Positions 35,096 through 52,468 of a stretch of 64,000 nt of DNA are shown here, piece after piece. The notes under the pieces are model-generated. The model was not told where the DNA came from. It made no database searches and saw only the letters and a program-made list of their open reading frames with translations. The position numbers and the translations under genes were made by a program. This DNA comes from Giardia intestinalis (taxonomy: Eukaryota), in NCBI GenBank assembly GCA_000002435.2, contig CM018790.1; one strand, 5' to 3'. Numbering within the stretch: position 1 is the first letter of the stretch; each line of letters starts with the position of its first letter.

Positions 35096-35097
35096 AT
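35091..35097 (+). terminator. AGTGAAT polyadenylation signal overlapping the TGA stop (35093-35095) of the 34076-35095 gene.
   Basis: Sequence ...caaaAGTGAATcact... The minus-strand gene's stop codon starts 1 nt later, at 35097. Confidence 0.55.
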
Positions 35098-36527
35098 CAC
35101 TCGTTGAAGATGGCCCACAAGGACCGAGATTCTTGCTCGTGCTCGTACTCATAGTCCACCTCGCTACTGACAGCGTTGTGGAGGCTCGACTCGCTCCGGA
35201 AAGAGTCTAGTGCCCCTCCTTCCAAGTGGCTAGCGAGGTCTTCACGAATACTGGCAGGCAATCCGCGATCGTTGCGCACGCTTTCTGCAGCAGTGAGCCC
35301 GCTATGCTCAGCTCGCTGTCTTTTACGTTGCACAGAAGCATCCTCTTCTGGATCGACAGTTCCCTCTCTTGCTGCTTGAAGAGCGCGATAAAAGTCTCCG
35401 TGCTGAGCATCAAATAACTGAAGCTTTGCTTGCCTGACACCTGCAGGAGCAATATATTCCTGAATAGAGATGTCGCTTGCCAGACTCAAATCAATTGGTA
35501 TGGACATTGCAGTCGCCTGTGCGCCCTGAGCTAAAAGCGATCCTAGACTTGCCAACTGTTCGTGTGCTGCAGATTCTGCATAGTGCCGATGGTAAAGATG
35601 TCTGCGTACAAGAGATGGGGGCCGTACGTCTACGCCCTCAAGGTCGAGGTCTACATTACGAAGAACATCACCAATGGTTAGCTTGGCGAATAGCTCTGAT
35701 GATTGCATTTCTTGGAGACGGCGCGCAATGGTGTCTGGAGAACAAAAGACACAGCGGGAAATGCGATGAATGGGTATCCCATAGTTTAGTAACTTAAGCG
35801 CAACAAAAATACTGGCGCCTAACAAGCCTGATGGAAGCCTGCCGGTGTGAATATTAATAGCGGTAGAGGCCTTAAGAATGTACTTAGATACAACAAGAGT
35901 ATGCTCACGGAGCTGATCCACAGATGTTATGTGGATATTAGCGAAAAGCATACAATCTCTGTTGTCTTGAAATGCAGTCGTGAACTCTTCTTTCAGAATA
36001 CTATCCACAAACCGTGGTAACAGTGATTCAAGATCCTGGTAAGGTAGCTTGATATTATATTGACGCAGAAATGGCTGTATGTACTTGTTGAGCGTGAAAA
36101 CAGAAACGTTAAGAGCATCTGCATAGTCTATCAGAAGATGGGAGAGGTTGTGCTGTCGCCCCACAATGTAAAGAAGAGCTGCTGCCAAGAGATTGTTTCT
36201 CCGTCCTCTCGTTGCTTTGTCGCGCAGACAATTGGCATAGTAGTCGCTGGCTTTCCGAACAAGCTCCATTGGTAAATTTAGAATCATTGCAATTGTCTCT
36301 AGCTCCTTGGAAAAGTGTTTGATTGCAAGACTGCGAGCCGTGGAGGAGGTGTTAGCGCTTATGAAGTTCCCCATCACGGTGGACACACCATTTTGATCTT
36401 GGTAGATTAGATCATTGACAATGAGAGTGTCCATGATTACAAGCCCACAGTTACCACAGAACACTTTTGCTTGGCCCTCGTCAGTTATCGTGCTATTGGA
36501 AAGGCAAAATGGACATGAAATGGACAT
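35097..36527 (-). CDS. TFIIB-related transcription factor, 476 aa: an N-terminal zinc ribbon and two cyclin-like repeats plus a ~150-aa C-terminal extension. BRF1/TFIIIB-like or TFIIB.
   Basis: MSISCPFCLSNSTITDEGQAKVFCGNCGLV is a C-x2-C...C-x2-C zinc ribbon. Two cyclin-fold repeats follow (…LLAAALLYIVGRQHN…; …GLLGASIFVALKLLNYGIPI…). ATG at 36525-36527 with an AT-rich initiator. Confidence 0.65.
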   Translation of the reverse strand: MSISCPFCLSNSTITDEGQAKVFCGNCGLVIMDTLIVNDLIYQDQNGVSTVMGNFISANTSSTARSLAIKHFSKELETIAMILNLPMELVRKASDYYANCLRDKATRGRRNNLLAAALLYIVGRQHNLSHLLIDYADALNVSVFTLNKYIQPFLRQYNIKLPYQDLESLLPRFVDSILKEEFTTAFQDNRDCMLFANIHITSVDQLREHTLVVSKYILKASTAINIHTGRLPSGLLGASIFVALKLLNYGIPIHRISRCVFCSPDTIARRLQEMQSSELFAKLTIGDVLRNVDLDLEGVDVRPPSLVRRHLYHRHYAESAAHEQLASLGSLLAQGAQATAMSIPIDLSLASDISIQEYIAPAGVRQAKLQLFDAQHGDFYRALQAAREGTVDPEEDASVQRKRQRAEHSGLTAAESVRNDRGLPASIREDLASHLEGGALDSFRSESSLHNAVSSEVDYEYEHEQESRSLWAIFNE

Positions 36528-36589
36528 TCTTTTTTGATTGTTTACTCTGTCCCAGCAGATGATGATTCACTCCACCCAGCGGTTGCTCC

Positions 36590-36875
36590 CAGTGCTGTGC
36601 TGCCAGATTTACCTGCGGGTATGGTCTAGCAATCTTGTGGGTAAATTGTCGCTTAATTCCTAGCCAATCCGGAGACGACTGTTGGTCATTGATAACATAA
36701 CAAGAGGGTCCTCTCCAGTGATACATCCAGGGCCCGGTACATTTCTCTTCCGTTTCATGGGCGTGTGCTCTGTCTGGATGTGCACGTCAGCCTACCTAGG
36801 ATTCAACTTACTTGCCCATCTGCGTCGTCCACCAGTGATTTCTCTCCTTGGTCTACCGCTCTGATGGTGGAGGGT
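36590..36875 (+). repeat. Copy A of a diverged direct repeat of ~285 bp, roughly 65-75% identical by eye to copy B at 42062-42350.
   Basis: Matching blocks: GTGCTGCCAG/GTGCTACCGG; ccGGAGACgActgTTGGTcaTTGATaACATAACaAGaGG vs ccGGAGACaAaggTTGGTtgTGGATgATATAACgAGgAG; GTGTGCTCtGtCTGgaTGTGCAC vs GTGTGCTCaGCTGAgTGTGCAC; CaTCtgCGTCGTCCACCAGTG...CTCTCCTTGGTCT vs CATCGTCCACCAGTG...CTCTCCTTGGTCT. Confidence 0.55.
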
Positions 36876-37495
36876 CTTAACAGTTGATGTTCCTGGACCG
36901 ACGCCTCGACAGACCGAAGCATCACCCAAGTGTGCTGTGCAGATGGACCAGCCCACACGTCACCGAGCCAGACGCACTGCACAGGGTGAGCGTCGACATG
37001 ATCTCGCGCTGGATGGTGGAGCACCTCTGCGATCCGTGAGCAGAGGGTCATACTTCTCCCCCGACACCACCGCATAGGAGCTGTCCACTGGCATCCACGA
37101 ATGCGTACTATGACTCCAAGATAGAGGCGCACGGGGAGCGCACCTCCGATCATACTCGGGACCGATGCTCGCTTCATGAGAAGACGAAGAGGCACCCGAG
37201 GAACGGGGTAGATACCCGGGGTCGCGGTGTGCAATCTCCGTCGTAGAGCATCAGCACCACAAAGCTACTCCGGAGTGCATGGCCAGAGTCAACTGCTCTG
37301 AGGCCAGATCGCCGCGACAGACGCAAGGCCCGAGACAGCGGGTGCTCAATAGATGTCAGACGATAGCTGACCCAAGCCAGTCAGAGAGAAGAGACGCCCC
37401 GGAGCGCATAGTGGAGCACCCAACGGCTCCCAGGCGGGATGCACAAGGCTCTTCTCCAGAGTGGGCGGCATCCGAGCTTCGGACTCTGGACGGGT

Positions 37496-39633
37496 TTACT
37501 CGGACAGGAGCTGGCAAGCCGACATTGTTGAAACAGAGTAGATCTCGTTTGGGAGGATGCCTACTATCTCCATGCGATCCTTCTTCTTAGCGATATTGAG
37601 GGCAGTGGTACCGGGCGAGTGACCATGGCAGCTGCAGGTTGTCTTCAGATCTTTCTCGTTTTCCTTAAGAAGTCTTGCACACTCCACGGTGTTACTATAT
37701 GCCGCACTCATAAGGGCGATCTCCCTTGGTCGTTTGCATGCCGCCTTCCTCCTTCATTAGGAGCCTGACGCACTCTGGATGATCATTGCACACCGTCCAT
37801 GTGAGGACAGTCTGATGCTCGTTGTTCCTTATGCCAGTCTCCTGCTCGAGTAGCTCTACGATTCCTTCGTGCCCTCGTGCTGCTGCATACATGAGCTCCG
37901 TCCACCCTGAGATACTGCTCTCATACTCCATCAAAAGCTCAACGTGCCCAATATAGTCCACCAGGGGGTCATTGGAACGGTCGCACCGTGCCGCGAATAC
38001 GAGAGCGGCCCAACCGCCTACTTTCTCTCCCTTTTCGTGCTCTGCTAGCAGTTCTACTATTTCTGCGTATCCATTGCCGCAGCCATCATCAGAGCTGTTC
38101 CTTTGCGCATGTACCATCCGCTTCTTGTGACCTCTTTGTATGTTTTCCTCCCCCTCTGGATGGGTAAGAGTGCTTTTACAGCCCCCGCGTCGTTTCTATT
38201 GACAGCTCGCATGAGCGCCGTGACGCCGTTCTCATCGGTTGGGTCGATGGCCTCCACCACGGTTCCATGTCCTGCCTCTGCCGCAATCACCAAGGCCGTC
38301 TTGCCTTCGCTGCCGATCCGGTCCTTCTCATATGGGACCAGAAGGGAGGCAGCTCTTGCATAGTCCTCCTCTGTGGCGATCATCAGGTAGTCCAGCCATT
38401 CTTGTCCTGGAGACCGTTCTCCTCCCCAACAAGCAACTCGACGGGACTGATGCGCCCCTGCTCGTCGCGCTGACCAACACCGAGTCTTTCTTCAAGCAGC
38501 ATCCAGACGGTCTCCGTGCTATTCGTATGCGCGGCACGCATCAGCCCGGGCAACAAAAAGAGGCTGGACTGAGGGTCAGTCGTGTTCATCCTGTCATCGA
38601 ACTGTGCAAGCTTATTCTCCAGTGCCTTAATCATAGCTAGATGTTCCTTGCACTGATCTTCAAGTGCGTCGATCTAGTGGATTTAGTCTTAACATCCTCT
38701 TCCAGCAGCGCGATCCTGGCGTTAGCGCCATTCAGCGCAGCCTCCAAGGATCTGCACCTGTACCTCAGCATCACGCACTGACCCCCCAGCTCACTAACTG
38801 GGATGTCGAATGTAGCGAGCGTCTCGTGCAGCTCCCTGGCCGTCGGCCTCCTTCCAGGATCCAGCACGAATATCCCCTCCAGAACATTCTGCATGAAGCC
38901 ATCAGTGACACCGCTCAGGTCCGGCCTCCATCCATCAACGAAGACCTCTGCTGGCTCCTTGCCCCCCAAGAAGTTTGGTCTCCTCAGAGTAGTAAGTTCA
39001 TAAATGATGACCCCGAGGCTCCACACGTCGGAAGCATGGCTGGTCTCATTACGGAGGAGAATCTCGGGGGCCATGTATACTGCCGTGCCTGCAATGGTGC
39101 TCCCGCATCTCAGGGCGTCCTTACAGAGGCCGAAGTCGGCGATGATGAAGTGTTCACCATCTGCGCTGACGAGGACGTTCGCAAGCTTGAGGTCGCGGTG
39201 GACGAGGCCCTTGTAGGGGCGACCGTCGGCACCCACTCCGCTGAGGCCGTGGAGGTAGGCGAGGGCGGCGGCGACCTGCTTCATGACAGAGAGGATCACA
39301 GCGATAGGGACGGGGATCTTCCTTCGTTTGTGCTCGGTGAGGAGGCGCTCAAGGGTCTTGTCGTGCCGGTCCGTGACGACGTAGATGAGGCCCTCGTCTT
39401 CAATCACTTGATGATACTTGAGGACCCGGGTGAAAGATGTTAAGAAGGGCGGCCAGCCTACGCTTAATAGCATCCACACCGTGCTGATCCAGACCGTCGA
39501 GCCGGATCTCCTTCACAGTGAGGTGGGGGCATCCCTTGGGAGAGTAGATAACACTGAAGGCCCCCGCTGAGCACGGGGATGCCACCAGCGCCCATCGGCT
39601 CTGCAAAGCCGCTAACTGCACTGTTACTAGCAA
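37496..39633 (-). pseudogene. Disrupted NEK-type protein kinase plus ankyrin-repeat gene. The kinase N-lobe, the catalytic core with a coiled coil, and at least four ankyrin-repeat segments lie in six different ORF fragments separated by at least five frameshifts or stops.
   Basis: Fragments 39400-39633 (…SAGAFSVIYS…VKEIRLDG…LNIFHP), 38637-39479 (VLKYHQVIEDEGLIYVVTDRH…HRDLKLANVLV…DFGLCK…YMAPE…coiled coil), and 38383-38634, 38057-38383, 37695-38117, 37496-37711 (ankyrin repeats). The frame changes at ~39425-39430 (a CCCGGG run), ~38640-38675, 38383, ~38057-38117 and ~37700. Confidence 0.55.
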
Positions 39634-40263
39634 CTCCTAGGGCGCCCTCTGCGGTGGCTGGGACAGGGAGTGGAGTCAACAGCCATCGCTAATCTTAACG
39701 CAATCCGGAGCCACCCTTTGGAGTGGCCTTGGCTACTGCCCGAGCAAGGCGCCCAGTGTGAGCTGCCGATGACAGGCCAAGGAGGGCATACTCGCGGCTC
39801 GTATGGTCCTAAGCAGGTCGGATTCTGGAGGCTAACACGGAGCGCCCCGACAAAACACGCCGACTGGGGACCACACTGAGCTCTGGATGCATCAATAGAG
39901 AGAAGCTCTTAGTATGTTATCCACAACCAGACCTCGTCTCCGGACGGCTGGGAAGTGAGCGCGGCTTACCCGTGGGACCTCTGAGCGCACCTGCAGGCGG
40001 CCCCAGCGATACAGTGACGGCAATGTACAGGAGTGCACCCCGAGCAATCACTCCACAAGAGAGGTGCGATTTGAGTCTGGCCCTCACTGGTCCTGTTCCT
40101 ATGGAAGTCAGAGAGAACTACACTATCAGCTGGCCTCCAGTGAGCGTGCTCCTATCTTGTCCTTCTTCAGTCCAACTGGTTAAGGGAGCAAGAGCAGCTG
40201 TCTCTCACTGCTCGCGGCAACACATCAGCCTGACAGAAGAGCAGTGGCATACTAACCCGGCTA

Positions 40264-42027
40264 ATGTTGGTAGGATTTCTCCTAGTTTGTGCAACAGTGC
40301 TGGCAAAGGACAGCGGGAAGGACACATGCTTCCCGGGATACACCCTCAACCCCACCACGAAGAAGTGCGACAGGAACTCCGCGCCGTGCGAGGTCGAGGG
40401 CTGTGATGTCTGCGAGGAAAGCAACCCCCAGCAGTGCAAGACGTGCGGCTCAGGCTACACCCTCAACCCCACCACGAAGAAGTGCGACAGGAACTCCGCG
40501 CCGTGCGAGGTCGAGGGCTGTGATGTCTGCGAGGAAAGCAACCCCCAGCAGTGCAAGACGTGCGGCTCAGGCTACACCCTCAACCCCACCACGAAGAAGT
40601 GCGACAGGAACTCCGCGCCGTGCGAGGTCGAGGGCTGTGATGTCTGCGAGGAAAGCAACCCCCAGCAGTGCAAGACGTGCGGCTCAGGCTACACCCTCAA
40701 CCCCACCACGAAGAAGTGCGACAGGAACTCCGCGCCGTGCGAGGTCGAGGGCTGTGATGTCTGCGAGGAAAGCAACCCCCAGCAGTGCAAGACGTGCGGC
40801 TCAGGCTACACCCTCAACCCCACCACGAAGAAGTGCGACAGGAACTCCGCGCCGTGCGAGGTCGAGGGCTGTGATGTCTGCGAGGAAAGCAACCCCCAGC
40901 AGTGCAAGACGTGCGGCTCAGGCTACACCCTCAACCCCACCACGAAGAAGTGCGACAGGAACTCCGCGCCGTGCGAGGTCGAGGGCTGTGATGTCTGCGA
41001 GGAAAGCAACCCCCAGCAGTGCAAGACGTGCGGCTCAGGCTACACCCTCAACCCCACCACGAAGAAGTGCGACAGGAACTCCGCGCCGTGCGATACTCCC
41101 AACTGCAAGGCCTGCGACAACCCCAAAACAGACAACGAAATCTGCACTGAATGTAATGATAACAATTATCTCACTCCAACCAGTCAGTGCGTATCTGACT
41201 GCACGACCCTCAAGGGCTACTACGGAGACGATAGTGGCAAAAAGACATGCAAGAGGTGCAACGATGCGTGCGCAGAGTGTAAGGGTGAGGGTGCTGATAA
41301 GTGTACGGCCTGCCCTGCTGGGAAGATGCTTCAGTATACAGATGCTGATACTCCTGCCAATGGGGGCACGTGCATGAACCAGTGCAGCGTGAGCCCTGCA
41401 AACGATGGATGCGCAGAGTGTGGGGCCCAAATAGGAGGAACTGCATATTGCTCAAAGTGCAAGAACACTCAACAGGCACCACTGGATGGCAACTGTGCGG
41501 CCAATACGCGAACACGATTTTGCACTACGGTGAGTAATGGAGCATGCACTCAATGTGAAAATAACTACTTCCTCAAAGATGGCGGTTGCTATCAAACAAA
41601 TAGACAGCCTGGTAAACAAGTGTGCACCCAAGCTAACGGAGGAAAGTGTCAGACATGTGCCAATGGCTTAGCAGCAACTGATGGCAACTGTGCAGAATGT
41701 CATCCTACTTGTGCTACGTGCTCGACTGCAGGTACGGCTGACAAGTGTAAGACCTGTGCCACTGGGTATTACAAGGAAAACGGTAGCGATACCACTACTG
41801 GGTTATGCAAGAAGTGCTCAGAGAAGATCTCTGGATGCAAGCAATGTGTGTCATCATCTGGCAGTTCAGTCATATGTTTAGAATCAGAAGTAGGCACTGG
41901 TGGAAGCGTCAACAAGAGCGGCCTCTCCACGGGGGCCATCGCGGGGATCTCCGTTGCTGTGATTGTTGTCGTCGGAGGGCTTGTCGGATTCCTTTGCTGG
42001 TGGTTCCTCTGCCGCGGGAAGGCGTAG
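40264..42027 (+). CDS. vsp: Variant-specific surface protein (VSP), 587 aa: signal peptide, six and a half identical 39-aa Cys-rich tandem repeats, a unique CXXC-rich region, a transmembrane helix and the invariant CRGKA tail.
   Basis: MLVGFLLVCATVLA signal peptide; many CXXC motifs; C-terminus …IAGISVAVIVVVGGLVGFLCWWFLCRGKA*. Confidence 0.9.
   Translation: MLVGFLLVCATVLAKDSGKDTCFPGYTLNPTTKKCDRNSAPCEVEGCDVCEESNPQQCKTCGSGYTLNPTTKKCDRNSAPCEVEGCDVCEESNPQQCKTCGSGYTLNPTTKKCDRNSAPCEVEGCDVCEESNPQQCKTCGSGYTLNPTTKKCDRNSAPCEVEGCDVCEESNPQQCKTCGSGYTLNPTTKKCDRNSAPCEVEGCDVCEESNPQQCKTCGSGYTLNPTTKKCDRNSAPCEVEGCDVCEESNPQQCKTCGSGYTLNPTTKKCDRNSAPCDTPNCKACDNPKTDNEICTECNDNNYLTPTSQCVSDCTTLKGYYGDDSGKKTCKRCNDACAECKGEGADKCTACPAGKMLQYTDADTPANGGTCMNQCSVSPANDGCAECGAQIGGTAYCSKCKNTQQAPLDGNCAANTRTRFCTTVSNGACTQCENNYFLKDGGCYQTNRQPGKQVCTQANGGKCQTCANGLAATDGNCAECHPTCATCSTAGTADKCKTCATGYYKENGSDTTTGLCKKCSEKISGCKQCVSSSGSSVICLESEVGTGGSVNKSGLSTGAIAGISVAVIVVVGGLVGFLCWWFLCRGKA
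40336..41091 (+). repeat. Perfect tandem repeat inside the VSP: a 117-bp unit (39 aa, GYTLNPTTKKCDRNSAPCEVEGCDVCEESNPQQCKTCGS) in six full copies plus a 54-bp partial seventh. Copies begin at 40336, 40453, 40570, 40687, 40804, 40921 and 41038.
   Basis: Read directly; the copies appear nucleotide-identical. Confidence 0.9.
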
Positions 42028-42042
42028 ACTTAGGTAGTAAAC
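42028..42042 (+). terminator. VSP extended polyadenylation element ACTTAGGTAGTAAAC, containing AGTAAAC at 42036-42042, immediately after the TAG stop.
   Basis: Sequence ...ggcgTAGACTTAGGTAGTAAACgcatt... matches the conserved VSP 3' motif ACTYAGRTAGTRAAY. Confidence 0.75.
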
Positions 42043-42061
42043 GCATTACTTTATGTAGCTT

Positions 42062-42350
42062 ATGTGGATGTGCTACCGGGTGCTTGTAGGTACGATCCAG
42101 AAATCTCACGAATAAATTCTCGCTCCTTTGGCCGTGTCCGGAGACAAAGGTTGGTTGTGGATGATATAACGAGGAGCTCCTCTCTTTTAGTATATCTAAA
42201 ACCTGGCACCTTCCCTGGTCGCTCCGCAGGGGTGTGCTCAGCTGAGTGTGCACACCCGGGAATGCTTGCTCAGTCGGCCTGGGATTCCGCTTACTCACCA
42301 TGTACATCGTCCACCAGTGGCGCCTCTCCTTGGTCTTCCTTCACGGTGGG
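42062..42350 (+). repeat. Copy B of the diverged direct repeat (see 36590-36875). It starts ~35 bp after the VSP polyA signal and is followed by ~430 bp of very GC-rich sequence with no ORF.
   Basis: Alignment blocks listed under copy A. Confidence 0.55.
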
Positions 42351-42977
42351 TGAAGCCCGGGTCGCCGTCTTTTTTAGATGCCCCGTCTGTCAGGGGCTGC
42401 CACCGGGCTCTCCGCTGGCTGGGCCCTCGGTGTCCGTCCGGCTGTGTCCCGGTCCAACTGGTGGGTAGAGGCAGGGGGATTGCTGGGGCAGTGAGGACCG
42501 AGTGGGTGGTGTCCATCTGTGCCCCTGGGCTCTCGGTGGGCCATTGGGGCGGTGGGTGATTCTCGCTCTGTTTGCTGCAGTGGTTGTGTCTGATCTCCAG
42601 CCCGCGCTGCACGAGATATAAGCCAGGCACCGACGATCACACTAGGTCCCTGGTCGTCCCTCTGCAAGAGTAGAGGGGAGCCCCTGTCTGCTGTCACAAC
42701 TACCCCACCCCCAGGCGGGTCCGGCAGCACCACAATGAAATCTTCAGCATGCACATTTTCTGCTCGTGTCATCGTAGTTTAGATTGTGCATATCTTAGTT
42801 ATACTAAACTCTACTTCATCAGCCACTAGAACTAGCATAGCTTGGAGCAGCGCTTATTTACTAACTATACTGATGTGTGCTTTACAGCTACACAGTAATC
42901 CACATAGAATACTAATCCATGTCAAGTTGCAAACTACTAAGGTTAGCGCTCATACTTCTTACGGTCCCTTCATGGCC

Positions 42978-45900
42978 TTAAATATCAGAACTGCCTGTGC
43001 TACACTGCCCAATTGATGTATTGCTACTTGTGACGCCAGAGGCTTTATTGACATGCATTGTGGATGGAACAGTGGATTGTATTGCTAACAGATTTGCCAA
43101 GGGAGCCGATTGGGCTATATCGGAAGCACTATGAGTGGAAGACGTATCTGAAATACTTGAAGGAGCCTTTGCTTCAACCACGTCTGTAGTTATCTTAATA
43201 GTTGATGTCTTTTTCCGTGAGTCTACATGTGATGGTGTAGACGGTGAGCTGGTATTTGATTCCGCTATGGGGTCGTCTAAATTCGCTGGTCTCTGGTCAG
43301 TACTATTGCCAAGAAAGCACAACTTTGGTATTATGGGGTGTGCACTCATTGTTTTCGACTGAAGATCTGTATCATCGTCGTCTTGGTTAACTAAGCGAAT
43401 GCGTGTGATTGGTGTCTTGATACCTGCGGACTCTTTCGGAAGGGACTGCAAATTTAGTGCAGGAATTACTAGAGGGCTCCGTGGAGAAGTGGGGCGCAGC
43501 TGTGGCTTAGCATCGCTACCCGCTGGAGTCCCTGTCGAAGTGCTACTTTCTCCTTTCACAGTGAAATCATTCCATCGCGTCAGTTCGTACTGGATTGATG
43601 CATTTATCCAATGCAGTGGAAGATTGATGCGCCCTATCAAGAGAGTCCTAAGTCTCCGCAAGAAGAGACCCCTGGGGAAGCTGGATTCCTGTTTGCTAAG
43701 AACACACGGGTCCCATGAAATATGGCGCCCATACCGGTAAAGAAAACAATAGTGTGCGGTTAGTAGTTGAATGCGGCACAGATTGAAGCCTTGCATATCC
43801 ACCTCAGGCCGTGTACACTTGCAACAACAGCACATATATTGTGAGGTCCCATGACCGATATCTGGAAAGATAGTAGGCGGGGGGTATGAGTATCTGTACT
43901 CTGGAGTAGAGCCGACTAACGACTCTTGCATGCTGTTAATAGGCTCGTCTGCAGAAAAGTGGAGCGTAGAAAGAGTAGGAGGACGGGCCTGTTGCTGTTG
44001 ATTGGATGGCGTAATTGTGCTGTTATTAGTAACAATACTTGTTGTGCGTAGCTTGCTTAAGGATCCTGTTGTACGAGTTTGGCGTTTATTACGCATTAGT
44101 ATGATATCTGAAGCATTCTGCTGGTCATCTTCATTGTAGGGCTCATAGTAGAAGCTGTTATTCCTACTCACTATACTATGTTCTCCGTGAGGTTCATCAT
44201 CGACATTGTCGTCATCGATAGTTGTGCAAATCGAGTCATCAAAGATGCTTGTAAGACCTCCTACATCCTTTAGCTCTTTGCGGATCTGAGACGCCACAAT
44301 ACAATCCTCCAAAGAGCGTGTAAACATCCTATCCCGATATAAAAAGCGTTGCTCAGCCCCCATATCCTTGAAAATCTCTGGATTCCCTGTTTCAGTCGAG
44401 CTTTCTCGTTCCTTAAGACTGGTCTGCTTCTGGTGTCCTTCTATTCCTGCGAGTATTTTGCCTATAGCTGTTCTATTGTATAACTTGTTCCGCTGGATAT
44501 ACTTGTCATTCAATGCGGAATCAAGGGGCTTCTCCGGTTGCTCATCAACTACGTCTTGCTCTCTTTCAGGCTTAATACTACCAGAGAGATCAACGCTCTT
44601 CTGAGACATAGCGCTACTTATTGAGGCTTCTTTTGCATCCAGTTCTCGTAGTACCGGCGAGCTCGGCTCTGGCCTGGCATGAAATTGTTGTTGTTGTTGT
44701 TGTTGTTGCTGTTGCTGTTGAGGCGATTGATTTGGTGTGGACTTAGTATTCCGCGTGGGAGAAAGCACGCAGCTTTGTGATGTAGCTAGAGTGGAGAACT
44801 GGAAGGCGTTTCCCGGTAAACTACGTGCAGACGGTCTCTGTGAAAACGCCTTTGACTTCACCTGATTATGATCTGCAAGTGGAGCAGAGGTCATACTGAT
44901 ATGTTCAATTTCAGAAATTTCTTGAATATCCAGTTTGATCCCTGAAAGCGTCTTTGTGGACAGAGGAGGGTTGGAGTACAAGGGGTTAGAGAGCGCCTTA
45001 ATCGGAACCGATGCAGACGATTTGTGTTCTGAGAACCCAGCAGTTAATTGATTGAACGGGGAGCTTGCGCGACTGCTTTCTAATGACTCAGTTAAAGAAG
45101 AGCTAGCACTTTGCGCACTAATGTCAGAGTGCTGAAGCATATGCGGTTGACTTTGCACTTCTGCCACGGGAAAAAGAGGCCCAGGCTGGAAACTATTAAT
45201 ATCATCTTTTAGATAGTATTCTACGTCTCTCTCATTGCCCAGGGTCTCTGAGAAAGACCTGGTAAGCATCTGATACCATAGTCGCGTTCCCAATTCATAA
45301 AAGGACGATCCTACCGTTAGCGTAGTTAATCCATCAATTACGTTTTGCAACTGCATTCGCTTAAGCTTTGCAATGATGCTTCTAAGCGTGGGGCACTTTC
45401 TGATGGTGTTGAGGGTCTCCTGATCATCCAAATCGAAAAACGAGTTGGCATTATGGGCGTTTCCGTGAAGCAGACGAAGAGAAAACTCGACAGCATTCTG
45501 GGAGCTCCCAATATAAACATCCAAAGGGGATATCTTTTCAGACCAATCAAAATTATGAATATGGAGAATATTTTTCTCATCGACAAGGGCGTGAAGTACA
45601 TTTTCAAAGGAGTCGGACAGTATGGAGTCAAGGGTGTTCGACTCAGGTCCCTGTGAGCCATTCCCAGCCACACCATACTCTTGTCTCATAGAGGCATAAG
45701 CGTCGAGAAGAGGATGCTCAAAGCGGGCCGTGCTTTTGCTATCCAGTGAGGACACCCGCAAGTCGGGAGCTGAGAGAGAAACCTTGAGCGGTGGCGCAGA
45801 AGAGATTGGAGCCTGTTCGTGGGTTAGACTGCGCTGATATTTCTTGAGAAGCTTCTTGATGTAGTTGAAAATATGCTTACGACGGGGATAGAGGGATGCA

Positions 45901-48900
45901 GCCGACGACGCTTCAGCGACGAATTTCGAAGAATTAATAATCGACAGCAGTTGCTTGCTCCTTGTTCGTTCATTCAAAACAGGCGACGGAAGCCTGTATA
46001 GTAAGCTATCGGGGCTTCCATCATATAGTGATTCTGAGAGTACCCGTTCCAACAACGTTTTGACATGACGTGCCTCGTCCATTAGAGATACCGAGTTGCG
46101 CCTCACATTATCAGTGTGGAAAGTCGGCGAGGCTTTGGAGACCGTTTTCCGGTGTTCAAATATCCGGTCAACCATACAAATACCTGTGGATTTTCTGACC
46201 ACGTGTGCCTGTGCAATCTCAGGCACAGTAATATATACCGACTTATTAAACTCTGTGTCCGACAATAAATCAGATTGCCCTTCAGAGTCGAGACTAAAGG
46301 ACATGTGCCTGTTCAGAACATCACTGCTACTCATTGGACTCTTCGCTCTATTCTTTGAGCACAGCTCTGTTTTTGTTTTAAGCTTTTCTGAAGCGATGAT
46401 GTGGGCATGAGTATTAATCTTCTCCCCACTGGTAAAGTCATCTATGCGGTAACCTGTATGATTGAGCACATCATGTTTGGACTTTCTAAATAGCTTAGAA
46501 GAGAAGAGGGCCAGTGTGTTAGCCAGCAGAGGAATATCGGTGCACGTATAGATCATACTGTTGTCAATGGTGCTTGCAGTGATACACTTGCTATTATTAG
46601 CCAGCACGTATTGTCTGCGGCGCATAATTATCAGCATGTGAAACCGTCGGAGCTGATGGTAGTCTCTCTTCGCTTCTCTCCACAACGCACGGATGTTCCC
46701 AGACTTACTGGTCGCTACGGAGTGTGCGTGAGACAAAACAGAGTGCATCGTCGTTACACTGATGTCCGAAGTCCCCTTTGCCGGAATGCTCATTGGCAGC
46801 TTAAATTGTCTTGGATTGACAGCAGGATGATACATGCATTCAAACAGCGTGTATCTGTGACTTGGAATCTCGTCTAGAAGACCACACAGCAAGTCGGTAA
46901 TCAGCAATCCAAAGGTTCCACAGAGAGCAAAGGCTTCTTGGCTATACCTGTACAGAGGGGTTCGTCTGACCAAGCCTGTGAGTGAATGAAAAAGCATAAC
47001 TCCTGTTTGCCAAGCGTCTGCATGTACAGCTGAAAACAGGGAATGAGCCCTGTGTGGGTCGTGGTCACTACACGTCTGCATAACAGCGCGAGACTCGGGA
47101 GAAAGAATAGTCGGAGTCCCTGTGGAACTGCTAATAAAGTAGGTATTCCTTGGCATAGCCGGAAACGTGTTGATCTGTCTAATAGATGAGAGGTAGGATT
47201 GTAGTGCCTGCCCAACCTTGTTAGTCTCTATCGTCTCCTGAATGAAGTCTTCAATGCGGCTGATAGTGGAGAGAAGCGCAGCGTCTCGTTGTGACAGTGA
47301 GCTATTTGAAGTCTTAATTGAGCAATCAATGGCTGGCACCAACAAGGAGTTGTCAGCAGGGAAATCTGCGTCTAGATGGGTATGACCTTTGCATGTTTTC
47401 TCTGCAAGTCCAGTTCCATCGGGTGTTAAGTCAGTCAATTTCAAGCTCAGCGCGTCAGTGTGAAAAGCTTTTTGGAAGGTTGCCGCATGCGAATCATCGT
47501 CGAGCAAAGGAATGTCTACACAAGGCTCTAAGTTGCCTAAAAAGGCGTCCTTTTGGTCATCCAAGGAAAGAACCAGAGTAAGGCAAGAAGAGTGAAGCGC
47601 TCTTGTCACAGAACTTTTGTCACTAGTACGTGCAATATGAGCCGTATCAATGCTTGCATTGGGCTTTGCAGCAGTAACTGTTGCTTGTCGTAAGCTGAGA
47701 GTAGTATCCTTGCATGAAGAGTTGTTTGGTTTAATACTTATTTTGTCAAAAATAGGCTCCGACATATCAAATGATTGTGTCTCGTAGATTCCAGACATCC
47801 TGCATATCCCTATACTTCCATTAAGGGTGTCCATATCTATTTGTGAGGGCTTCAAAGACTGCTGTGAGTCGTCCAGCTTAGCTGCCTCAGTGCATATGGC
47901 AGTGCCCTCTTTGACTAAGATGTCAGCATTGAAGCTAAAGGCCGACGAAACTAAGTCGGCCTCTCTCCTAGATGAAGCATGCACACAGTCAGAATCCATA
48001 GAGGCTACTACATCATGACCCAACAAAAGGCTGCCTTCGTCTTCTTGTGGTAAAATACGTTGCCGCACAAGGTCATTAAAAAAGCATGTAAAGCTCTTGC
48101 GAAGAAGAGAAAGGTGTCTATTGTATATGCTTTTTAGTGTCTCTAGGACGGTCTGTGCTGTTGGTAGTCTGACCCCCTCTTCCTCGAGGATGATTGCAGT
48201 ATCAAAGTCACTGATCTTTGCACGGTAGGGTGCAGTATCCGAGTCCCCTAACAGATAGTACGTTATATCTGATGACTCTTTTAGTGATTGAAGTCTGTAC
48301 CGAGATCCGCTTGGAAGCAGCAAAGGAGAAAGAACGTTGTCATTGAGGCGAGAGGATATACGTGTAGGCCCTCTGGGCATAACAGTGGGCGGATTGGCGG
48401 CGGTTGGTAGTGCATTTTGTAAAGGAAGCTTCAAAGAAAGTGGGGGTATATTGTACCTATCTTTAGGGTCCCTCCTCAGCGTATTCTCAATTGGGTTGCT
48501 ATGAGATGGATCACTACTCAGAGCAGTACTTGCCAAGGGAGTGCTGGACTGAGATTGTACGGTCCCAACTGCAAAGTCACCTATTGTGCCTGAGGTGCTA
48601 GTAAAGAACAGGTCGGTCGTTCTGGGGACCTTCCGTGGAAGTAGCTTACTTGCAGGAGGTATCGGTGTCTTGAAATTGCTTTGAAGATCGGTGGTGATGA
48701 TGATGTTCTCTAATTTGATATCTTGGTGTACAACGTTGCAGAAGTGCATGTAGCAGAGAGCATCGACAACCTGATAGAAGAGTATCATGATCTTCTTTAG
48801 ATCTGCTGTGCGTACAACCTCCTGGAGGGTCCCCCCGTCACAGTACTCTATTATGAAAACGAAGTTATCATCATAGTTCATGGTGCACCGACCTGTGTTC

Positions 48901-49715
48901 TGATAGCGTGGAGTCAGGTTGGAGTCCAATTGGGAGCTACGGGCCGAGTATTGTTTGAGCTTACTGCCAGCCGATGGCATACGTCTATGGGCAAGCTCCG
49001 ATCCCTGGGTCAATGGTTTAGCAATACCATTAAGAGCCATCGGATTGTGCAAAAGAGGCTGCAAATCGGAGACAAGCTCTGGTTGTAGCATCCCCTTGGC
49101 GTTTGAGAGTTGATCAATAATAGATTGATACTTGCAGGGAAGCTCACATATCAGGTTGACCTGCTGTGCAATAGACAGGATTGTCTGAACCCACGGGGGC
49201 AAGCTTCCCGGTGTTACGGCGTACTGACCGGCAAACGTAGAACCAGGAATTAGGGACTCCATAGAGTTCTCCACAGAGCAAACATCAGCGTAAATAGGGT
49301 GATGCATCACCTCAATGAGGTTAAGAATAGATGGGTGTGCGGTGGTCAAGAAATCCATGACCCGGGAGCAATTCCAAAGGAATTTGTCCGCAGATTCCTG
49401 GGTTAAGAGCTTACGCCTCAGAGAAGTTCGGTTGATCATGCGCATGGCTGCTTTTTGCTCTGTAAGCGGGTTATGGCATAGTCTCACGTTGGCATAGGCA
49501 CCCCGACCGATTGTTCTCTGTATGATCCACTCGTTAATGCACACGTTCCCCTGGGCTGTCGTTGTAACCCAGATCCGATCCTTGACTGGAACTCGAAGCA
49601 GTCCTGGCAGAAATGGAGCAGAGATGCCTGTCAAAAGGTGGAAGACGCCTGTCGCTGACTCTGACGTACTAGATGTGCTGTCAGTACTTGCATGGTTCAC
49701 TTCATGCAAGGCCAT
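42978..49715 (-). CDS. Large protein of 2,245 aa with an N-terminal protein-kinase-like domain split by long insertions (probable pseudokinase or very divergent kinase), a polyQ tract, and a long low-complexity C-terminus.
   Basis: Subdomains I-II IGRGAYANV…KAAMRMI (the beta-3 Lys is Arg), HPSILNLIEVM, a ~200-aa insert, FVFIIEYCDGGTL, VHQDIKLENIII (HRD replaced by HQD), a ~170-aa insert, ISDFDTAII (DFG replaced by DFD), DAWQTGVMLFHSLTG, and PSHRYTLFECMYHPAV. Confidence 0.6.
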   Translation of the reverse strand: MALHEVNHASTDSTSSTSESATGVFHLLTGISAPFLPGLLRVPVKDRIWVTTTAQGNVCINEWIIQRTIGRGAYANVRLCHNPLTEQKAAMRMINRTSLRRKLLTQESADKFLWNCSRVMDFLTTAHPSILNLIEVMHHPIYADVCSVENSMESLIPGSTFAGQYAVTPGSLPPWVQTILSIAQQVNLICELPCKYQSIIDQLSNAKGMLQPELVSDLQPLLHNPMALNGIAKPLTQGSELAHRRMPSAGSKLKQYSARSSQLDSNLTPRYQNTGRCTMNYDDNFVFIIEYCDGGTLQEVVRTADLKKIMILFYQVVDALCYMHFCNVVHQDIKLENIIITTDLQSNFKTPIPPASKLLPRKVPRTTDLFFTSTSGTIGDFAVGTVQSQSSTPLASTALSSDPSHSNPIENTLRRDPKDRYNIPPLSLKLPLQNALPTAANPPTVMPRGPTRISSRLNDNVLSPLLLPSGSRYRLQSLKESSDITYYLLGDSDTAPYRAKISDFDTAIILEEEGVRLPTAQTVLETLKSIYNRHLSLLRKSFTCFFNDLVRQRILPQEDEGSLLLGHDVVASMDSDCVHASSRREADLVSSAFSFNADILVKEGTAICTEAAKLDDSQQSLKPSQIDMDTLNGSIGICRMSGIYETQSFDMSEPIFDKISIKPNNSSCKDTTLSLRQATVTAAKPNASIDTAHIARTSDKSSVTRALHSSCLTLVLSLDDQKDAFLGNLEPCVDIPLLDDDSHAATFQKAFHTDALSLKLTDLTPDGTGLAEKTCKGHTHLDADFPADNSLLVPAIDCSIKTSNSSLSQRDAALLSTISRIEDFIQETIETNKVGQALQSYLSSIRQINTFPAMPRNTYFISSSTGTPTILSPESRAVMQTCSDHDPHRAHSLFSAVHADAWQTGVMLFHSLTGLVRRTPLYRYSQEAFALCGTFGLLITDLLCGLLDEIPSHRYTLFECMYHPAVNPRQFKLPMSIPAKGTSDISVTTMHSVLSHAHSVATSKSGNIRALWREAKRDYHQLRRFHMLIIMRRRQYVLANNSKCITASTIDNSMIYTCTDIPLLANTLALFSSKLFRKSKHDVLNHTGYRIDDFTSGEKINTHAHIIASEKLKTKTELCSKNRAKSPMSSSDVLNRHMSFSLDSEGQSDLLSDTEFNKSVYITVPEIAQAHVVRKSTGICMVDRIFEHRKTVSKASPTFHTDNVRRNSVSLMDEARHVKTLLERVLSESLYDGSPDSLLYRLPSPVLNERTRSKQLLSIINSSKFVAEASSAASLYPRRKHIFNYIKKLLKKYQRSLTHEQAPISSAPPLKVSLSAPDLRVSSLDSKSTARFEHPLLDAYASMRQEYGVAGNGSQGPESNTLDSILSDSFENVLHALVDEKNILHIHNFDWSEKISPLDVYIGSSQNAVEFSLRLLHGNAHNANSFFDLDDQETLNTIRKCPTLRSIIAKLKRMQLQNVIDGLTTLTVGSSFYELGTRLWYQMLTRSFSETLGNERDVEYYLKDDINSFQPGPLFPVAEVQSQPHMLQHSDISAQSASSSLTESLESSRASSPFNQLTAGFSEHKSSASVPIKALSNPLYSNPPLSTKTLSGIKLDIQEISEIEHISMTSAPLADHNQVKSKAFSQRPSARSLPGNAFQFSTLATSQSCVLSPTRNTKSTPNQSPQQQQQQQQQQQQFHARPEPSSPVLRELDAKEASISSAMSQKSVDLSGSIKPEREQDVVDEQPEKPLDSALNDKYIQRNKLYNRTAIGKILAGIEGHQKQTSLKERESSTETGNPEIFKDMGAEQRFLYRDRMFTRSLEDCIVASQIRKELKDVGGLTSIFDDSICTTIDDDNVDDEPHGEHSIVSRNNSFYYEPYNEDDQQNASDIILMRNKRQTRTTGSLSKLRTTSIVTNNSTITPSNQQQQARPPTLSTLHFSADEPINSMQESLVGSTPEYRYSYPPPTIFPDIGHGTSQYMCCCCKCTRPEVDMQGFNLCRIQLLTAHYCFLYRYGRHISWDPCVLSKQESSFPRGLFLRRLRTLLIGRINLPLHWINASIQYELTRWNDFTVKGESSTSTGTPAGSDAKPQLRPTSPRSPLVIPALNLQSLPKESAGIKTPITRIRLVNQDDDDTDLQSKTMSAHPIIPKLCFLGNSTDQRPANLDDPIAESNTSSPSTPSHVDSRKKTSTIKITTDVVEAKAPSSISDTSSTHSASDIAQSAPLANLLAIQSTVPSTMHVNKASGVTSSNTSIGQCSTGSSDI
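44686..44721 (-). repeat. (CAA/CAG)n microsatellite, read as (TTG)n on the plus strand, encoding a ~12-residue polyglutamine run in the kinase-like protein.
   Basis: ttgttgttgttgttgttgttgctgttgctgttg; the protein has QQQQQQQQQQQQ. Confidence 0.7.
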
Positions 49716-49869: not shown

Positions 49870-51357
49870 TTACCAGGAAATGCTCCGATCTCTCCTATTA
49901 ATATTACGGATAACTATCGCATACGCTCGCCGGACACGCTCGTCCTCTTCGGCCTCTGCCATCTTTCTGCAACGCTCAACGAGCTCCCTGGCCTCTCGTT
50001 GATCCTTGAGAACTGCGCATTTATCACAGAAACTTTCAAACTCTTTTTCCTTCTCTCTTGCTAACCTCAATTTGGCAATTTCAGCAAGGGTTTCCGTGGC
50101 CATGCGCTTTGCCTCTGCGCGCTTCTCCTCAGCCAGCATCTTCTCATACTCCGCCTCCCGGACATGCTCAAGATGCTGCTTTTGGTTGTACTCTAAATCG
50201 GCCATCTCTTCGACGGCCTTACGTGCAAACTTGTCTGCCACGTTAAACTCGTTTATCTTCCGTGCTTCATCCTCGAGTTTCTTGTATTTTGCTGCACGTG
50301 CTTGACGCGCCTCCTCCGCACGTACGTTAGTGATATCCTGGCCCTCACACCTGAGCATCGAGTTAATGCGCCGTTCCTCATCTGCCTTAATCTGTTTGGC
50401 CACAGCTAGCTGAGCTATTTCCGTGGCAGCAGCCTTCTTCTCTTTCAAGCTCTTCATCCGGGCCTCATGGATGGCGTGTCGTTCGTCAAGTTTTTGTTGA
50501 ACCATCTGGATCTCTAAGTCGGTAGCCATCTCTTCAAGGGCGCGAATGTTGTCCTGTTTCTTCTTTTCTTCAACCTGCTTGTCAAGGATAGATCTGCATG
50601 TCATATTTCGTCTACGAGTGTCTTCGTACTCTTTTCTATGGAGTTCCTCGTCGAGAGCTTTCAGCCTCCGCATTTCCACAAGTTCATTCTCTCGTTCACG
50701 GCGTTCCTCTTCGCGCTGGTATTGGCCCTTCTGCGTCTGGGCCAAGTTCACCCTATCGACACGCTCTCGTGCGGTCCGCTGTGCCAGTGCCTTCTCAGCA
50801 TTGGCATCCACTTCTTCCTTGTAGAGTCTGTACGCTGTCTCCTTTTCCTGCAGCCCCTCCTGAAGTTCGGCTTGTCGGCGCTCTTCCTTGATGCGCTTAG
50901 TCTCTGCAAGGTCCTTGAGGCAATCTGCCGTTATCTTAGCACTGCGGAACATACGCATGTAGTCATTGTCGAGCTCCTTGTGACGCCGGTACTGCTCCTG
51001 GACAGCGTCAGCCTTTTTCTTCTCGCGCTCGAGCCACGCCTGTTCCAGCTCACGGATCTCTTGCTCCTTTGCCGCTTCTTGATCGGCCATCTTTTGCAGA
51101 CGCGCCTGGCGCTGATCCTCGATCGTATTTTTCCAAGTTTTCGTGCGCTCAGCTCCTATCTGCGCCCTGATAATGTTATTTCGGTTAAAGATTGTGTCAT
51201 CGCGGCCAGAGACAGACTCTGTGGGATAAAGTGGGCCAGCACGGTGCCGAATCATGTTCAGATCGTATTGATCCAAAACGATCGGCTTATTGGATTTGGT
51301 CATGCGTTGTGTGATCTTCGGTTTGGTTGCAAACAGCGTGGTATCGGTGTACGGCAT
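49870..51357 (-). CDS. Coiled-coil protein of 495 aa with a trichohyalin-plectin-homology (TPH)-type E/R/K-rich coiled coil; probably axoneme-associated (MNS1/CFAP45/CFAP53-like).
   Basis: Charged coiled-coil heptads along nearly the full length (…EERRERENELVEMRRLKALDEELHRKEYEDTRRRN…). Its size and composition match ciliary TPH proteins. It shares a divergent promoter with IFT46. Confidence 0.5.
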   Translation of the reverse strand: MPYTDTTLFATKPKITQRMTKSNKPIVLDQYDLNMIRHRAGPLYPTESVSGRDDTIFNRNNIIRAQIGAERTKTWKNTIEDQRQARLQKMADQEAAKEQEIRELEQAWLEREKKKADAVQEQYRRHKELDNDYMRMFRSAKITADCLKDLAETKRIKEERRQAELQEGLQEKETAYRLYKEEVDANAEKALAQRTARERVDRVNLAQTQKGQYQREEERRERENELVEMRRLKALDEELHRKEYEDTRRRNMTCRSILDKQVEEKKKQDNIRALEEMATDLEIQMVQQKLDERHAIHEARMKSLKEKKAAATEIAQLAVAKQIKADEERRINSMLRCEGQDITNVRAEEARQARAAKYKKLEDEARKINEFNVADKFARKAVEEMADLEYNQKQHLEHVREAEYEKMLAEEKRAEAKRMATETLAEIAKLRLAREKEKEFESFCDKCAVLKDQREARELVERCRKMAEAEEDERVRRAYAIVIRNINRRDRSISW

Positions 51358-51508: not shown

Positions 51509-52468
51509 ATGTTCAAAAACAGGAAAACGAAAAAGGGGAAGGCAGACGAGGTGCTTGAATATGAGGGAGCGACGTCACTTGAGTCTAACCCCGTGGAAGA
51601 TTACGATGACCGTGAGGACTCGAAGGACCAGGACTCTCCTACTGCGGGAAGACACGGCAATCCAGGCCCTATGAGCCTCAGAGAGATCGACGACGCAGGC
51701 TACAATATCCCCCTTCCGCCAGAGCCGGACCACGTTGATCCGTCCATCAAGAAAATGAAAAAGGGACTCGCTAAGATGTCGGAAAAGGAGCTCTTCAACC
51801 TCTTTCACGCATTCCAGCCTGTTGAGCTGAGCCTCGAGACTATATACGTTCCCTTTCTTCCAGACTATACTCCGTCCATCGGTGACGTGGATCCATTTAT
51901 CAAGGTGCCCCGGCCCGACAACAAGGTAGAGGCACTGGGGCTTGTTGTCTTGGATGACCCATGCATCAATCAGTCAGATCCAACAGTCTTAGGGCTTCAA
52001 TTGAAAGACACGACCAAGGCGGTTAATCTGGACCTAGAGGTTGATCTAGGAGCTAGCGGAGGAGACACAAACAATGATCTCCATGTGCGCAAGGATGTGA
52101 TCAAAATGGTTCCTTCTGCAGACGACCCAGTCAAACAAGTTACTAACACAAAACAAAATGTTAATTCATGGATCCAAAAGATAGACGAGCTGCACGACAA
52201 AATAGGCCACAACGCTGAATATGCATATTCCCTGCCTATCCCGGACACAATAATGAACCTTTGGGAGCCCCAATTCATTGAGTTGCTAGAGAAAGTGGAC
52301 CTACCAACTGCCAACATAGAGCTATCTACAGAAGAGTACGCCCGGTTGGTGTGCGCGCTTCTCGATATACCCGTGGGGGAGAGTCTCATCGAGTCTCTTC
52401 ACATGCTGTTTATAAATTATCTGGACGTTCAAGATAATTTGAAGTTAGCACAGCACGGTATCCTATAA
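51509..52468 (+). CDS. IFT46: Intraflagellar transport protein IFT46, 319 aa.
   Basis: PDYTPSIGDVDPFIKVPRPDNKVEALGLVVLDDPCINQSDPTVLGLQL aligns closely with the IFT46 core (PDFIPAVGDIDAFLKVPRPDGKPDNLGLLVLDEPSTKQSDPTVLSLWL), and …LPTANIELSTEEYARLVCALLDIPV matches …LPTAEIDCSLAEYIDMICAILDIPV. Confidence 0.8.
   Translation: MFKNRKTKKGKADEVLEYEGATSLESNPVEDYDDREDSKDQDSPTAGRHGNPGPMSLREIDDAGYNIPLPPEPDHVDPSIKKMKKGLAKMSEKELFNLFHAFQPVELSLETIYVPFLPDYTPSIGDVDPFIKVPRPDNKVEALGLVVLDDPCINQSDPTVLGLQLKDTTKAVNLDLEVDLGASGGDTNNDLHVRKDVIKMVPSADDPVKQVTNTKQNVNSWIQKIDELHDKIGHNAEYAYSLPIPDTIMNLWEPQFIELLEKVDLPTANIELSTEEYARLVCALLDIPVGESLIESLHMLFINYLDVQDNLKLAQHGIL

Follow-up and report, generated by a model that had tools for sequence, protein, structure and literature searches.

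The gene at the locus

The stretch analysed here (the window) is 64,000 nucleotides (nt) of Giardia intestinalis contig CM018790.1 (assembly GCA_000002435.2), and the subject of this study is one large gene in it that encodes an unusual protein kinase domain. A single uninterrupted open reading frame (ORF) of 2,245 codons was found at 42978..49715 on the minus strand, and its product gave a Pkinase match, which bears out the kinase-like protein of 2,245 amino acids (aa) that an earlier note, made from the letters of the window, had proposed at 42978-49715. Because the ORF agrees with the N-terminal portions, both cut short, that are given in Additional file 1 of the Giardia kinome study (Manning 2011, PMC3218828), we identified it as gene GL50803_17392 of Giardia lamblia WB (assemblage A). 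In that catalogue the gene is entry G280, with the kinome id GK052, and belongs to the family Other-GL1, which has three genes and was labelled 'Giardia-specific, no specific homologs'. The substitution K72->R, the motif HQDIKLEN and large inserts, two for this gene, were all recorded there; the DFD was missed, a 'DLF' was tentatively proposed as the DFG motif, and the authors' own verdict was 'Active?' (PMC3218828). The gene has thus been known since 2011, together with its K72->R, its HQD and its large inserts, so the observation as first stated in the earlier note adds little. The comparison with the NEK kinases and the kinome catalogue that the note had proposed did not point to a NEK: the top matches are CAMKL kinases, and the catalogued family is Other-GL1.

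Orthologues of GL50803_17392 were found in P15 (85% identity), in assemblage B (69%), in two further Giardia-like Logan lineages (63-65%) and in G. muris (1,627 aa). Length differences of 5 aa in assemblage B and other clusters were considered as repeat polymorphism and rejected, as they come from alternative start calls.

A kinase domain split by three inserts

On the whole protein, the Pfam Pkinase profile (PF00069) scored 62 bits (E 7.5e-17; curated cut-off 31.7) with part of the profile covered, and the phmmer matches in the PDB (MARK, AMPK, LKB1 and Chk1) fell into three separate stretches, aa 57-138, 285-345 and 892-970. When aa 44-141, 275-346, 483-516 and 852-975 were spliced together, a single Pkinase match covered profile positions 3-261 of 263, with 92.4 bits (E 4e-26). 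The profile alignment and subdomain mapping proposed in the earlier note therefore gave one near-full-length match after splicing, and the N-terminal region is kinase-like. The domain extends over aa ~57-965, about 910 aa, in four collinear pieces (Table 1), where the note had spread the kinase subdomains over ~1,000 aa; the division by three inserts was correct. The first insert separates beta-4 from beta-5, the second lies in the beta-7/beta-8 turn and the third is inside the activation segment. Their lengths are 133, 136 and 335 aa in GL50803_17392 and 110, 60 and 159 aa in G. muris, so that the ~350 aa estimated for the third was about right, and the ~200 and ~170 aa given for the first two were too large. 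Large disordered inserts have been described as common among Giardia kinases. The third insert is an addition to the two of the catalogue.

The inserts are unusually large and the Pfam match on the raw ORF is partial, as would be seen if they were introns or misassembly and the real protein were an ordinary kinase of ~300 aa or the product of several genes. However, all 2,245 codons are open, the same in-frame inserts are found in assemblages A, E and B and in two more lineages, independent assemblies carry the gene, and large kinase-domain inserts have been reported for other Giardia kinases. The ratio of non-synonymous to synonymous substitution rates (dN/dS) in the inserts, from 0.07 to 0.30, indicates selection on the protein. 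Because frame and length are kept across these five lineages (the inserts being shorter in G. muris) and dN/dS is 0.07, 0.08 and 0.30, respectively, the inserts are translated, and introns or misassembly are ruled out; such a gene-model artefact is highly improbable.

With an alignment of 54 rows, AlphaFold2 (AF2) predicted the four kinase pieces with a predicted local distance difference test (pLDDT) score of 80-98, and aa 143-277, 349-494 and 563-807 with scores below 50. When this model was compared with the PDB by Foldseek, the top matches were all kinases, led by CDPK, AMPK, SIK3, MARK and CaMKK. The third insert is predicted to consist of a helix at aa ~520-551 after the DFD, ~245 disordered residues, and helices at aa ~809-849 before the P+1 loop. 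Both helical ends are block-conserved across the family, and sequence identity falls off between them. The first insert is present in shorter form in G. muris (110 aa) and in Spironucleus, and the second is absent from the Spironucleus homologue.

Other kinases with inserts are known, such as the Giardia NDR kinase GK004, the CAMKK GK045 and many non-core kinases, as well as those of Plasmodium. They also carry disordered inserts within an intact fold, mostly in the activation loop, but they keep the K/D/D residues, whereas GL50803_17392 has three inserts totalling ~600 aa together with an Arg at beta-3 and a DFD (the R/DFD site).

Catalytic motifs

The window protein, 11 family members and 42 ordinary kinases (54 sequences) were aligned with MAFFT, and the column counts below come from this alignment. 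The Arg of AAMRMI, the HQD and the DFD pointed out in the earlier note are all present and align with the VAIK Lys, HRD and DFG. Arg92 of AAMRMI (nt 49440-49442) stands in the column of the beta-3 Lys, K72 of PKA (40 K, 12 R), Gln331 of HQD (aa 330-332; nt 48720-48728) in that of the HRD Arg (39 R, 10 Q, 2 H, 1 C), and Asp505 of DFD (aa 503-505; nt 48201-48209) in that of the DFG Gly (43 G, 11 D). In an E-INS-i alignment, which otherwise agrees with the MAFFT picture, the position of the alpha-C Glu (PKA E91) is taken by Cys116. In place of the canonical pair of beta-3 Lys and alpha-C Glu, the protein has Arg92 and Cys116. HQDIKLEN retains the Asp, Lys and Asn, with the HRD Arg replaced, and is of the non-RD type. 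D332, K334, N337, D503, F504, P873-E874, D900 and W902 stand in the conserved columns of D166, K168, N171, D184, F185, APE and DxW, and the equivalent of R280 and the GT/APE P+1 loop are also kept. At the position of AMPK Thr172 the protein has Ser863; G. muris, the Logan SRR31929897 genes and Spironucleus have a Glu there.

A canonical VAIK in an alternative register was looked for and none was found. The family alignment showed no invariant Lys in the N-lobe of the family, and therefore a WNK-style relocated lysine is not present; K88 was rejected as a substitute because it is not conserved across the family. Two other candidates for the DFG were also rejected. In a PDB profile search with orthologues only, 'YYLLGDS' was aligned to 'IADFGFS', which would make 'LLG' (aa 488-490) the DFG; this register lacks the metal-binding Asp, and its residues are not conserved in G. 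muris. Both this candidate and the 'DLF' proposed in 2011 (aa 368-370) fail because AKISDFDTA is invariant and because the Spironucleus protein, which lacks the beta-7/beta-8 insert, has its HCDLKSDN (aa 210) and its DFD (aa 233) at the canonical spacing. The DFD is therefore the true DFG equivalent. Placing the missing DFG at aa 503-505 is an addition to the catalogue.

Relatives in diplomonads and Kipferlia

Relatives were collected by an exhaustive profile search and a cluster look-up. Beyond GL50803_17392, the R/DFD family contains the paralogue GK050, two genes of Logan SRR31929897, a Spironucleus salmonicida homologue and a Kipferlia bialata fragment. The full-length members share a DRIW-type extension (loose in Spironucleus), GxGxYA, the beta-3 Arg followed by (I/V)(N/D/E)R, H(Q/H/C)D(I/V/L)KxxN, (S/A/G)DFDT, GT..(A/S/P)PE and DxWQxG. 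The catalytic Asp, Lys and Asn, the DFG Asp, the G-loop and the APE are invariant among them, and the beta-3 Arg, HQD and DFD are invariant in all Giardia orthologues of GL50803_17392, including that of G. muris. The alpha-C Glu is replaced by Cys, Ala, Thr or Ser in the diplomonad members, whereas Kipferlia retains it beside the Arg.

GK050 (GL50803_17378; P15 orthologue P0025, G. muris P0026) has the same DRIW extension, GxGxYA, beta-3 Arg, 'ADKFLW' alpha-C without Glu, H(H/Q)DIK..N, DFDT, DxWQFG and post-kinase basic motif, and its inserts occupy the same three positions. Its core is ~40% identical, but its inserts and tail are unrelated, and the protein has 2,091 aa. The Spironucleus salmonicida 'Kinase, CAMKK' (EST47452.1 / KAH0570655.1) shares VAMR, HCDLKSDN, SDFDTS, DIWQFG and the T-loop Glu; it differs in that it is 838 aa long, lacks the beta-7/beta-8 insert and has the remaining two in short form (~55 aa, and ~25 extra residues). 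This homologue is a picture of the family without the giant inserts. The gene-dense DNA of Logan SRR31929897 (L004, 10001-20995 and 24083-30995+) carries two tandem members, of 3,664 and 3,788 aa, on one strand; the ~3 kb that separates them contains a RING-finger gene. Their inserts are larger still, and P0024 has its DFD at aa 432 and its DVWQFG at aa 1417. The Kipferlia bialata protein GIQ90201.1 is partial and ends before the DFG, so it offers N-lobe features only, a beta-3 Arg (RAMRIINR) and an alpha-C Glu (WREVRIL). Because this free-living fornicate has both the Arg and the Glu, it is suggested that the change from Lys to Arg came before the loss of the alpha-C Glu.

The third Other-GL1 gene, GL50803_6624 (GK051), keeps HxD and DFG and is without the beta-3 Arg. 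Its look-alike P0029 (2,996 aa, Logan) also keeps HxD and DFG and has no Arg, the pair showing 'VSVY' / 'YSVYFY' at beta-3; both probably stand outside the R/DFD clade. Further searches with spliced family cores and family N-lobes gave only unrelated kinases or Kipferlia, and no new taxa. As judged from these alignments, the R/DFD site is a family hallmark older than the divergence of Giardia and Spironucleus. Because the family is also found in Spironucleus and Kipferlia, the label 'Giardia-specific' is outdated for two of the three Other-GL1 genes.

Selective constraint

In comparison with P15, dN/dS was 0.023 for the core of four pieces and 0.008 for the N-lobe piece, 0.19 for the inserts combined and 0.12-0.22 for the tail, and the comparison with assemblage B ranked the regions in the same order. 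The N-lobe is 97-99% identical among the assemblages and 74.5% identical to G. muris. The protein as a whole evolves faster than average, with 85% identity to P15 and 69% to assemblage B, against genome averages of 90% (A vs E) and ~79% (vs B).

The earlier note had called the catalytic motifs degenerate. This does not hold, as the substitutions are invariant in the Giardia orthologues and common to GK050, the Logan SRR31929897 genes and Spironucleus, with a core dN/dS of 0.02. Because of this low ratio and because the motif changes are shared throughout the family, the domain is constrained and not degenerate. The alteration of three or four canonical motif residues could be random damage in a kinase gene that is drifting to loss, but identical changes are fixed in the full-length Giardia, Logan SRR31929897 and Spironucleus members, the core is under strong constraint, and no stops or frameshifts occur in any lineage. 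Such a decaying relic is extremely improbable, and the odd active-site residues (Arg92, Cys116, Gln331 and Asp505) are shown to be a fixed family signature instead of erosion. These results show that GL50803_17392 encodes one real, selectively maintained CAMK-like kinase domain, whose best matches are AMPK/Snf1 and MARK.

Position among known kinases

The profile of the spliced family cores matched the AMPK alpha-2 kinase domain end to end with 134 bits (E 5e-38), with Snf1, PLK4, CaMKK2 and MARK close, and the family is near the CAMKL kinases. Over the domain as a whole, AMPK/Snf1 and MARK match best in both sequence and fold, and '(K/R)I(L/I)NR' after beta-3 and 'LxEV' at beta-4 are shared with them. 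They differ in having the canonical K/E/HRD/DFG, the Thr172 switch and UBA/AID/KA1 modules, whereas GL50803_17392 has R/C/HQD/DFD, three inserts and no such module detected. With HQD, Ser863 at the switch position (Glu in relatives) and no post-kinase domain detected by Pfam, the gene lacks the traits of AMPK/Snf1 proper. As for CAMKK, the name under which the Spironucleus homologue is annotated, the canonical motifs are absent; CaMKK2 matches well, though not best of all, and the kinase domain is followed by a basic amphipathic motif. The catalogued CAMKK of Giardia is another gene, GL50803_96363. LKB1, which has been reported as lost in Giardia, was considered as the true identity on account of a C-lobe match, and this was rejected because the family profile does not favour LKB1.

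Atypical kinase or pseudokinase

Of the residues for Mg-ATP binding and phosphate transfer, all are present except the beta-3 Lys, and the fold and the P+1 loop are intact. With Asp332, Lys334, Asn337, Asp503 and the G-loop invariant, the domain would still bind ATP and Mg, the peptide-binding P+1 loop may still be a functional part of it, and phosphate would probably be transferred by a non-canonical route. We speculated on such a route as follows. In ordinary kinases, the side chain of the alpha-C Glu adjoins the DFG backbone. The negative charge that is gone from alpha-C (Glu to Cys) appears to return at DFG+2 (Gly to Asp), and because of this and of that adjacency, an Arg92-Asp505 pair could replace the Lys-Glu bridge. 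With the non-RD loop and the T-loop Glu of most relatives, such an active site would hold together with neither movement of alpha-C nor phosphorylation of the T-loop, and control may then lie with the tail, the basic helix after the kinase domain and the inserts. We give atypical activity of this domain about an even chance.

A true pseudokinase scaffold would carry out no phosphorylation and would serve, ATP-bound or nucleotide-free, as an interaction module or allosteric partner in the manner of KSR, STRAD and ULK4, with the inserts and tail as docking regions. By the operational definition, a pseudokinase lacks K72, D166 or D184 (Manning 2011); GL50803_17392 retains D166 and D184 and has Arg for K72. 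The likely pseudokinase of the earlier note thus stands in the formal sense, as the protein departs from K/D/D, but the conservation fits an atypical working nucleotide site at least equally well. In favour of a scaffold, neither the beta-3 Lys nor the alpha-C Glu is present, the DFG has lost its Gly, ~1,870 of the 2,245 residues are low-complexity or disordered, and the strong constraint would equally fit a conserved binding surface. To our knowledge, KSR is a precedent for a scaffold with a beta-3 Arg, and KSR1/2 of mammals resemble the present protein in this Arg, in keeping the remaining catalytic machinery, in being large multi-region proteins and in having a debated activity. They differ in belonging to the RAF/TKL lineage, in keeping DFG and the alpha-C Glu, and in their CA1-CA4 regions, so that this is an analogy, with homology limited to the kinase fold. 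A scaffold role of KSR has been described (PMC8141879). However, D166, K168, N171, D184 and GT..APE are invariant in the full-length Giardia, Logan SRR31929897 and Spironucleus members, a single motif is all that is conserved of the tail outside G. intestinalis, and the verdict of the catalogue authors was 'Active?'. Long-lived pseudokinases, as far as we know, usually lose more than one catalytic or substrate-site residue. Because K->R is a textbook inactivating change and KSR offers a precedent, we hold the pseudokinase to be nearly as likely as atypical activity, with a probability somewhat short of even.

Several points speak against a rewired, active site of an AMPK-like family. The change of the beta-3 Lys to Arg is the classic 'kinase-dead' substitution, and with the alpha-C Glu gone as well, the domain may have no catalytic activity. 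The Arg92-Asp505 pair suggested above rests on charge bookkeeping, and the co-occurring changes are not independent covariation, because they possibly arose in one ancestral event. The order of best matches (AMPK > PLK4 ~ CaMKK2 > MARK) is too flat to fix the origin of the family. With six Giardia orthologues only, AF2 gave a pLDDT of 27.6 on aa 40-1000, and the confident model relied on an alignment that included ordinary kinases. A literature search for the gene id found, within the library searched, no paper naming GL50803_17392 other than the 2011 catalogue.

An atypical active kinase and an ATP-binding pseudokinase are indistinguishable by sequence, and we lean slightly towards atypical activity. 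The wider proposal, that the kinases of Giardia, Spironucleus and Kipferlia with the R/DFD site and without the alpha-C Glu form an ancient fornicate AMPK-like clade active through a rewired Arg(beta-3)-Asp(DFG+2) site in place of the near-universal Lys-Glu pair, is tentative and on present evidence rather unlikely. If the R/DFD site is catalytically competent, the known limits of kinase chemistry would be widened, and the Arg-Asp pair, if true, would mean that the protein-kinase fold has found a new way to work. A competent site would also mean a parasite-specific ATP pocket unlike that of any host kinase, which is relevant to the search for kinase drug targets in Giardia.

Table 1. Features of GL50803_17392 and of its surroundings in the window, and forms of the polyglutamine (polyQ) repeat in other assemblies (dN/dS vs P15 in kinase piece 1)
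Feature	Position (nt)	Strand	Residues (aa)	Description	Basis
Kinase piece 1	49293..49586	(-)	44-141	'DRIW' extension, G-loop GRGAYA (aa 70-75), beta-3 AAMR, alpha-C, beta-4 to 'LIEVMHHP'	AF2 pLDDT 86-96; dN/dS 0.008; G. muris identity 74.5%
Insert 1	48894..49292	(-)	142-274	133 aa; beta-4/beta-5; mostly disordered	pLDDT below 50 (aa 143-277); dN/dS 0.07
Kinase piece 2	48678..48893	(-)	275-346	beta-5, hinge, alpha-D/E, VHQDIKLEN (aa 329-337)	AF2 pLDDT 92-97
Insert 2	48270..48677	(-)	347-482	136 aa; beta-7/beta-8 turn; holds 'DLF'	pLDDT below 50; dN/dS 0.08
Kinase piece 3	48168..48269	(-)	483-516	beta-8 and DFG equivalent AKISDFDTAIIL	AF2 pLDDT 96; aligned with KIxDFG of ordinary kinases
Insert 3	47163..48167	(-)	517-851	335 aa; within activation segment	dN/dS 0.30
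Kinase piece 4	46791..47162	(-)	852-975	T-loop end FISSSTGTPTILSPE, SPE (aa 872-874), alpha-F HADAWQTG (D900, W902), alpha-H/I with R954	pLDDT 80-98
C-terminal tail	42981..46790	(-)	976-2245	1,270 aa; Ser/Thr/Pro/Gln-rich, low complexity	
Post-kinase basic motif	46536..46688	(-)	~1010-1060	…LRRFHMLIIMRRRQYVLANN…IDNS…	tail-profile hmmsearch and local alignment
PolyQ microsatellite	44685..44720	(-)	1666-1677	12 Gln, (CAA CAG)2(CAA)8	
PolyQ, SRR3177751				(CAA CAG)2(CAA)6 = Q10; 99.9% identical protein	
PolyQ, SRR3177919				CAA CAG CAG CAA CAG (CAA)5 = Q10	
PolyQ, third assemblage-A-like protein (P0180)				Q10	
PolyQ, P15				CGA(CAA)3 = Q3	
PolyQ, assemblage B				CAA CAA GAA CAG = QQEQ	
Largest ORF of the window	5736-25955	(-)		6,739 aa	
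TFIIB-like gene	35097-36527	(-)			
GC-rich DNA	36528-42977			~6.4 kb; GC 0.56-0.58	
Kinase-like ORF	38637-39479	(-)		280 aa	Pkinase profile positions 58-257 only
VSP gene	40264-42027	(+)			Pfam VSP, 293 bits
ORF neighbouring the kinase gene	49870-51357	(-)		495 aa; syntenic in P15 and assemblage B	no Pfam match

Post-kinase motif and tail

The Pfam search of the C-terminal tail gave no domain, and phmmer of the tail gave no match, not even to the G. muris orthologue. A tail-profile hmmsearch limited the similarity to G. muris to aa ~1010-1160. The basic motif that follows the kinase domain (Table 1) is shared with G. muris; it is only weakly conserved in the other family members, where it takes the form 'LRxYHhWh..RRR…NR'. 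In the relatives P0005, P0025, P0026, P0023 and P0024, the basic helix-like motif is followed by RRxS (RRNS, RRSS, RRAS), which may be a basophilic phosphorylation or pseudosubstrate-like site; GL50803_17392 has ITAS at this position, with the basic residues lost.

PolyQ repeat

The tract of 12 Gln encoded by (CAA/CAG)n, which the earlier note had placed at 44686-44721, is present one base away, at 44685-44720. The length polymorphism that it had foreseen was confirmed, with Q12 against Q10 among assemblage-A-like assemblies, and the repeat, which varies in length, expanded recently and in assemblage A only. No role is evident for it, but within assemblage A its length can be used as a marker. 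Another short run of Gln (QQQQ) lies at aa 1906-1909 and is shared by the Q10 alleles. A weak 11-bp tandem repeat of 2.2 copies at nt 44419-44442 is probably due to chance.

Neighbourhood in the window

The GC-rich DNA between the TFIIB-like gene and the kinase gene holds the VSP gene and the 280-aa ORF, which is either a truncated kinase or an ORF whose start was miscalled. The TFIIB-like gene of P15 directly follows the kinase gene, and in assemblage B a VSP gene is found at that place, so that 36528-42977 looks like a strain-variable VSP insertion site. The neighbour genes also include an IFT46 homologue at 51509-52468 (+) and a 1,598-aa ABC transporter at 26382-31178 (+).

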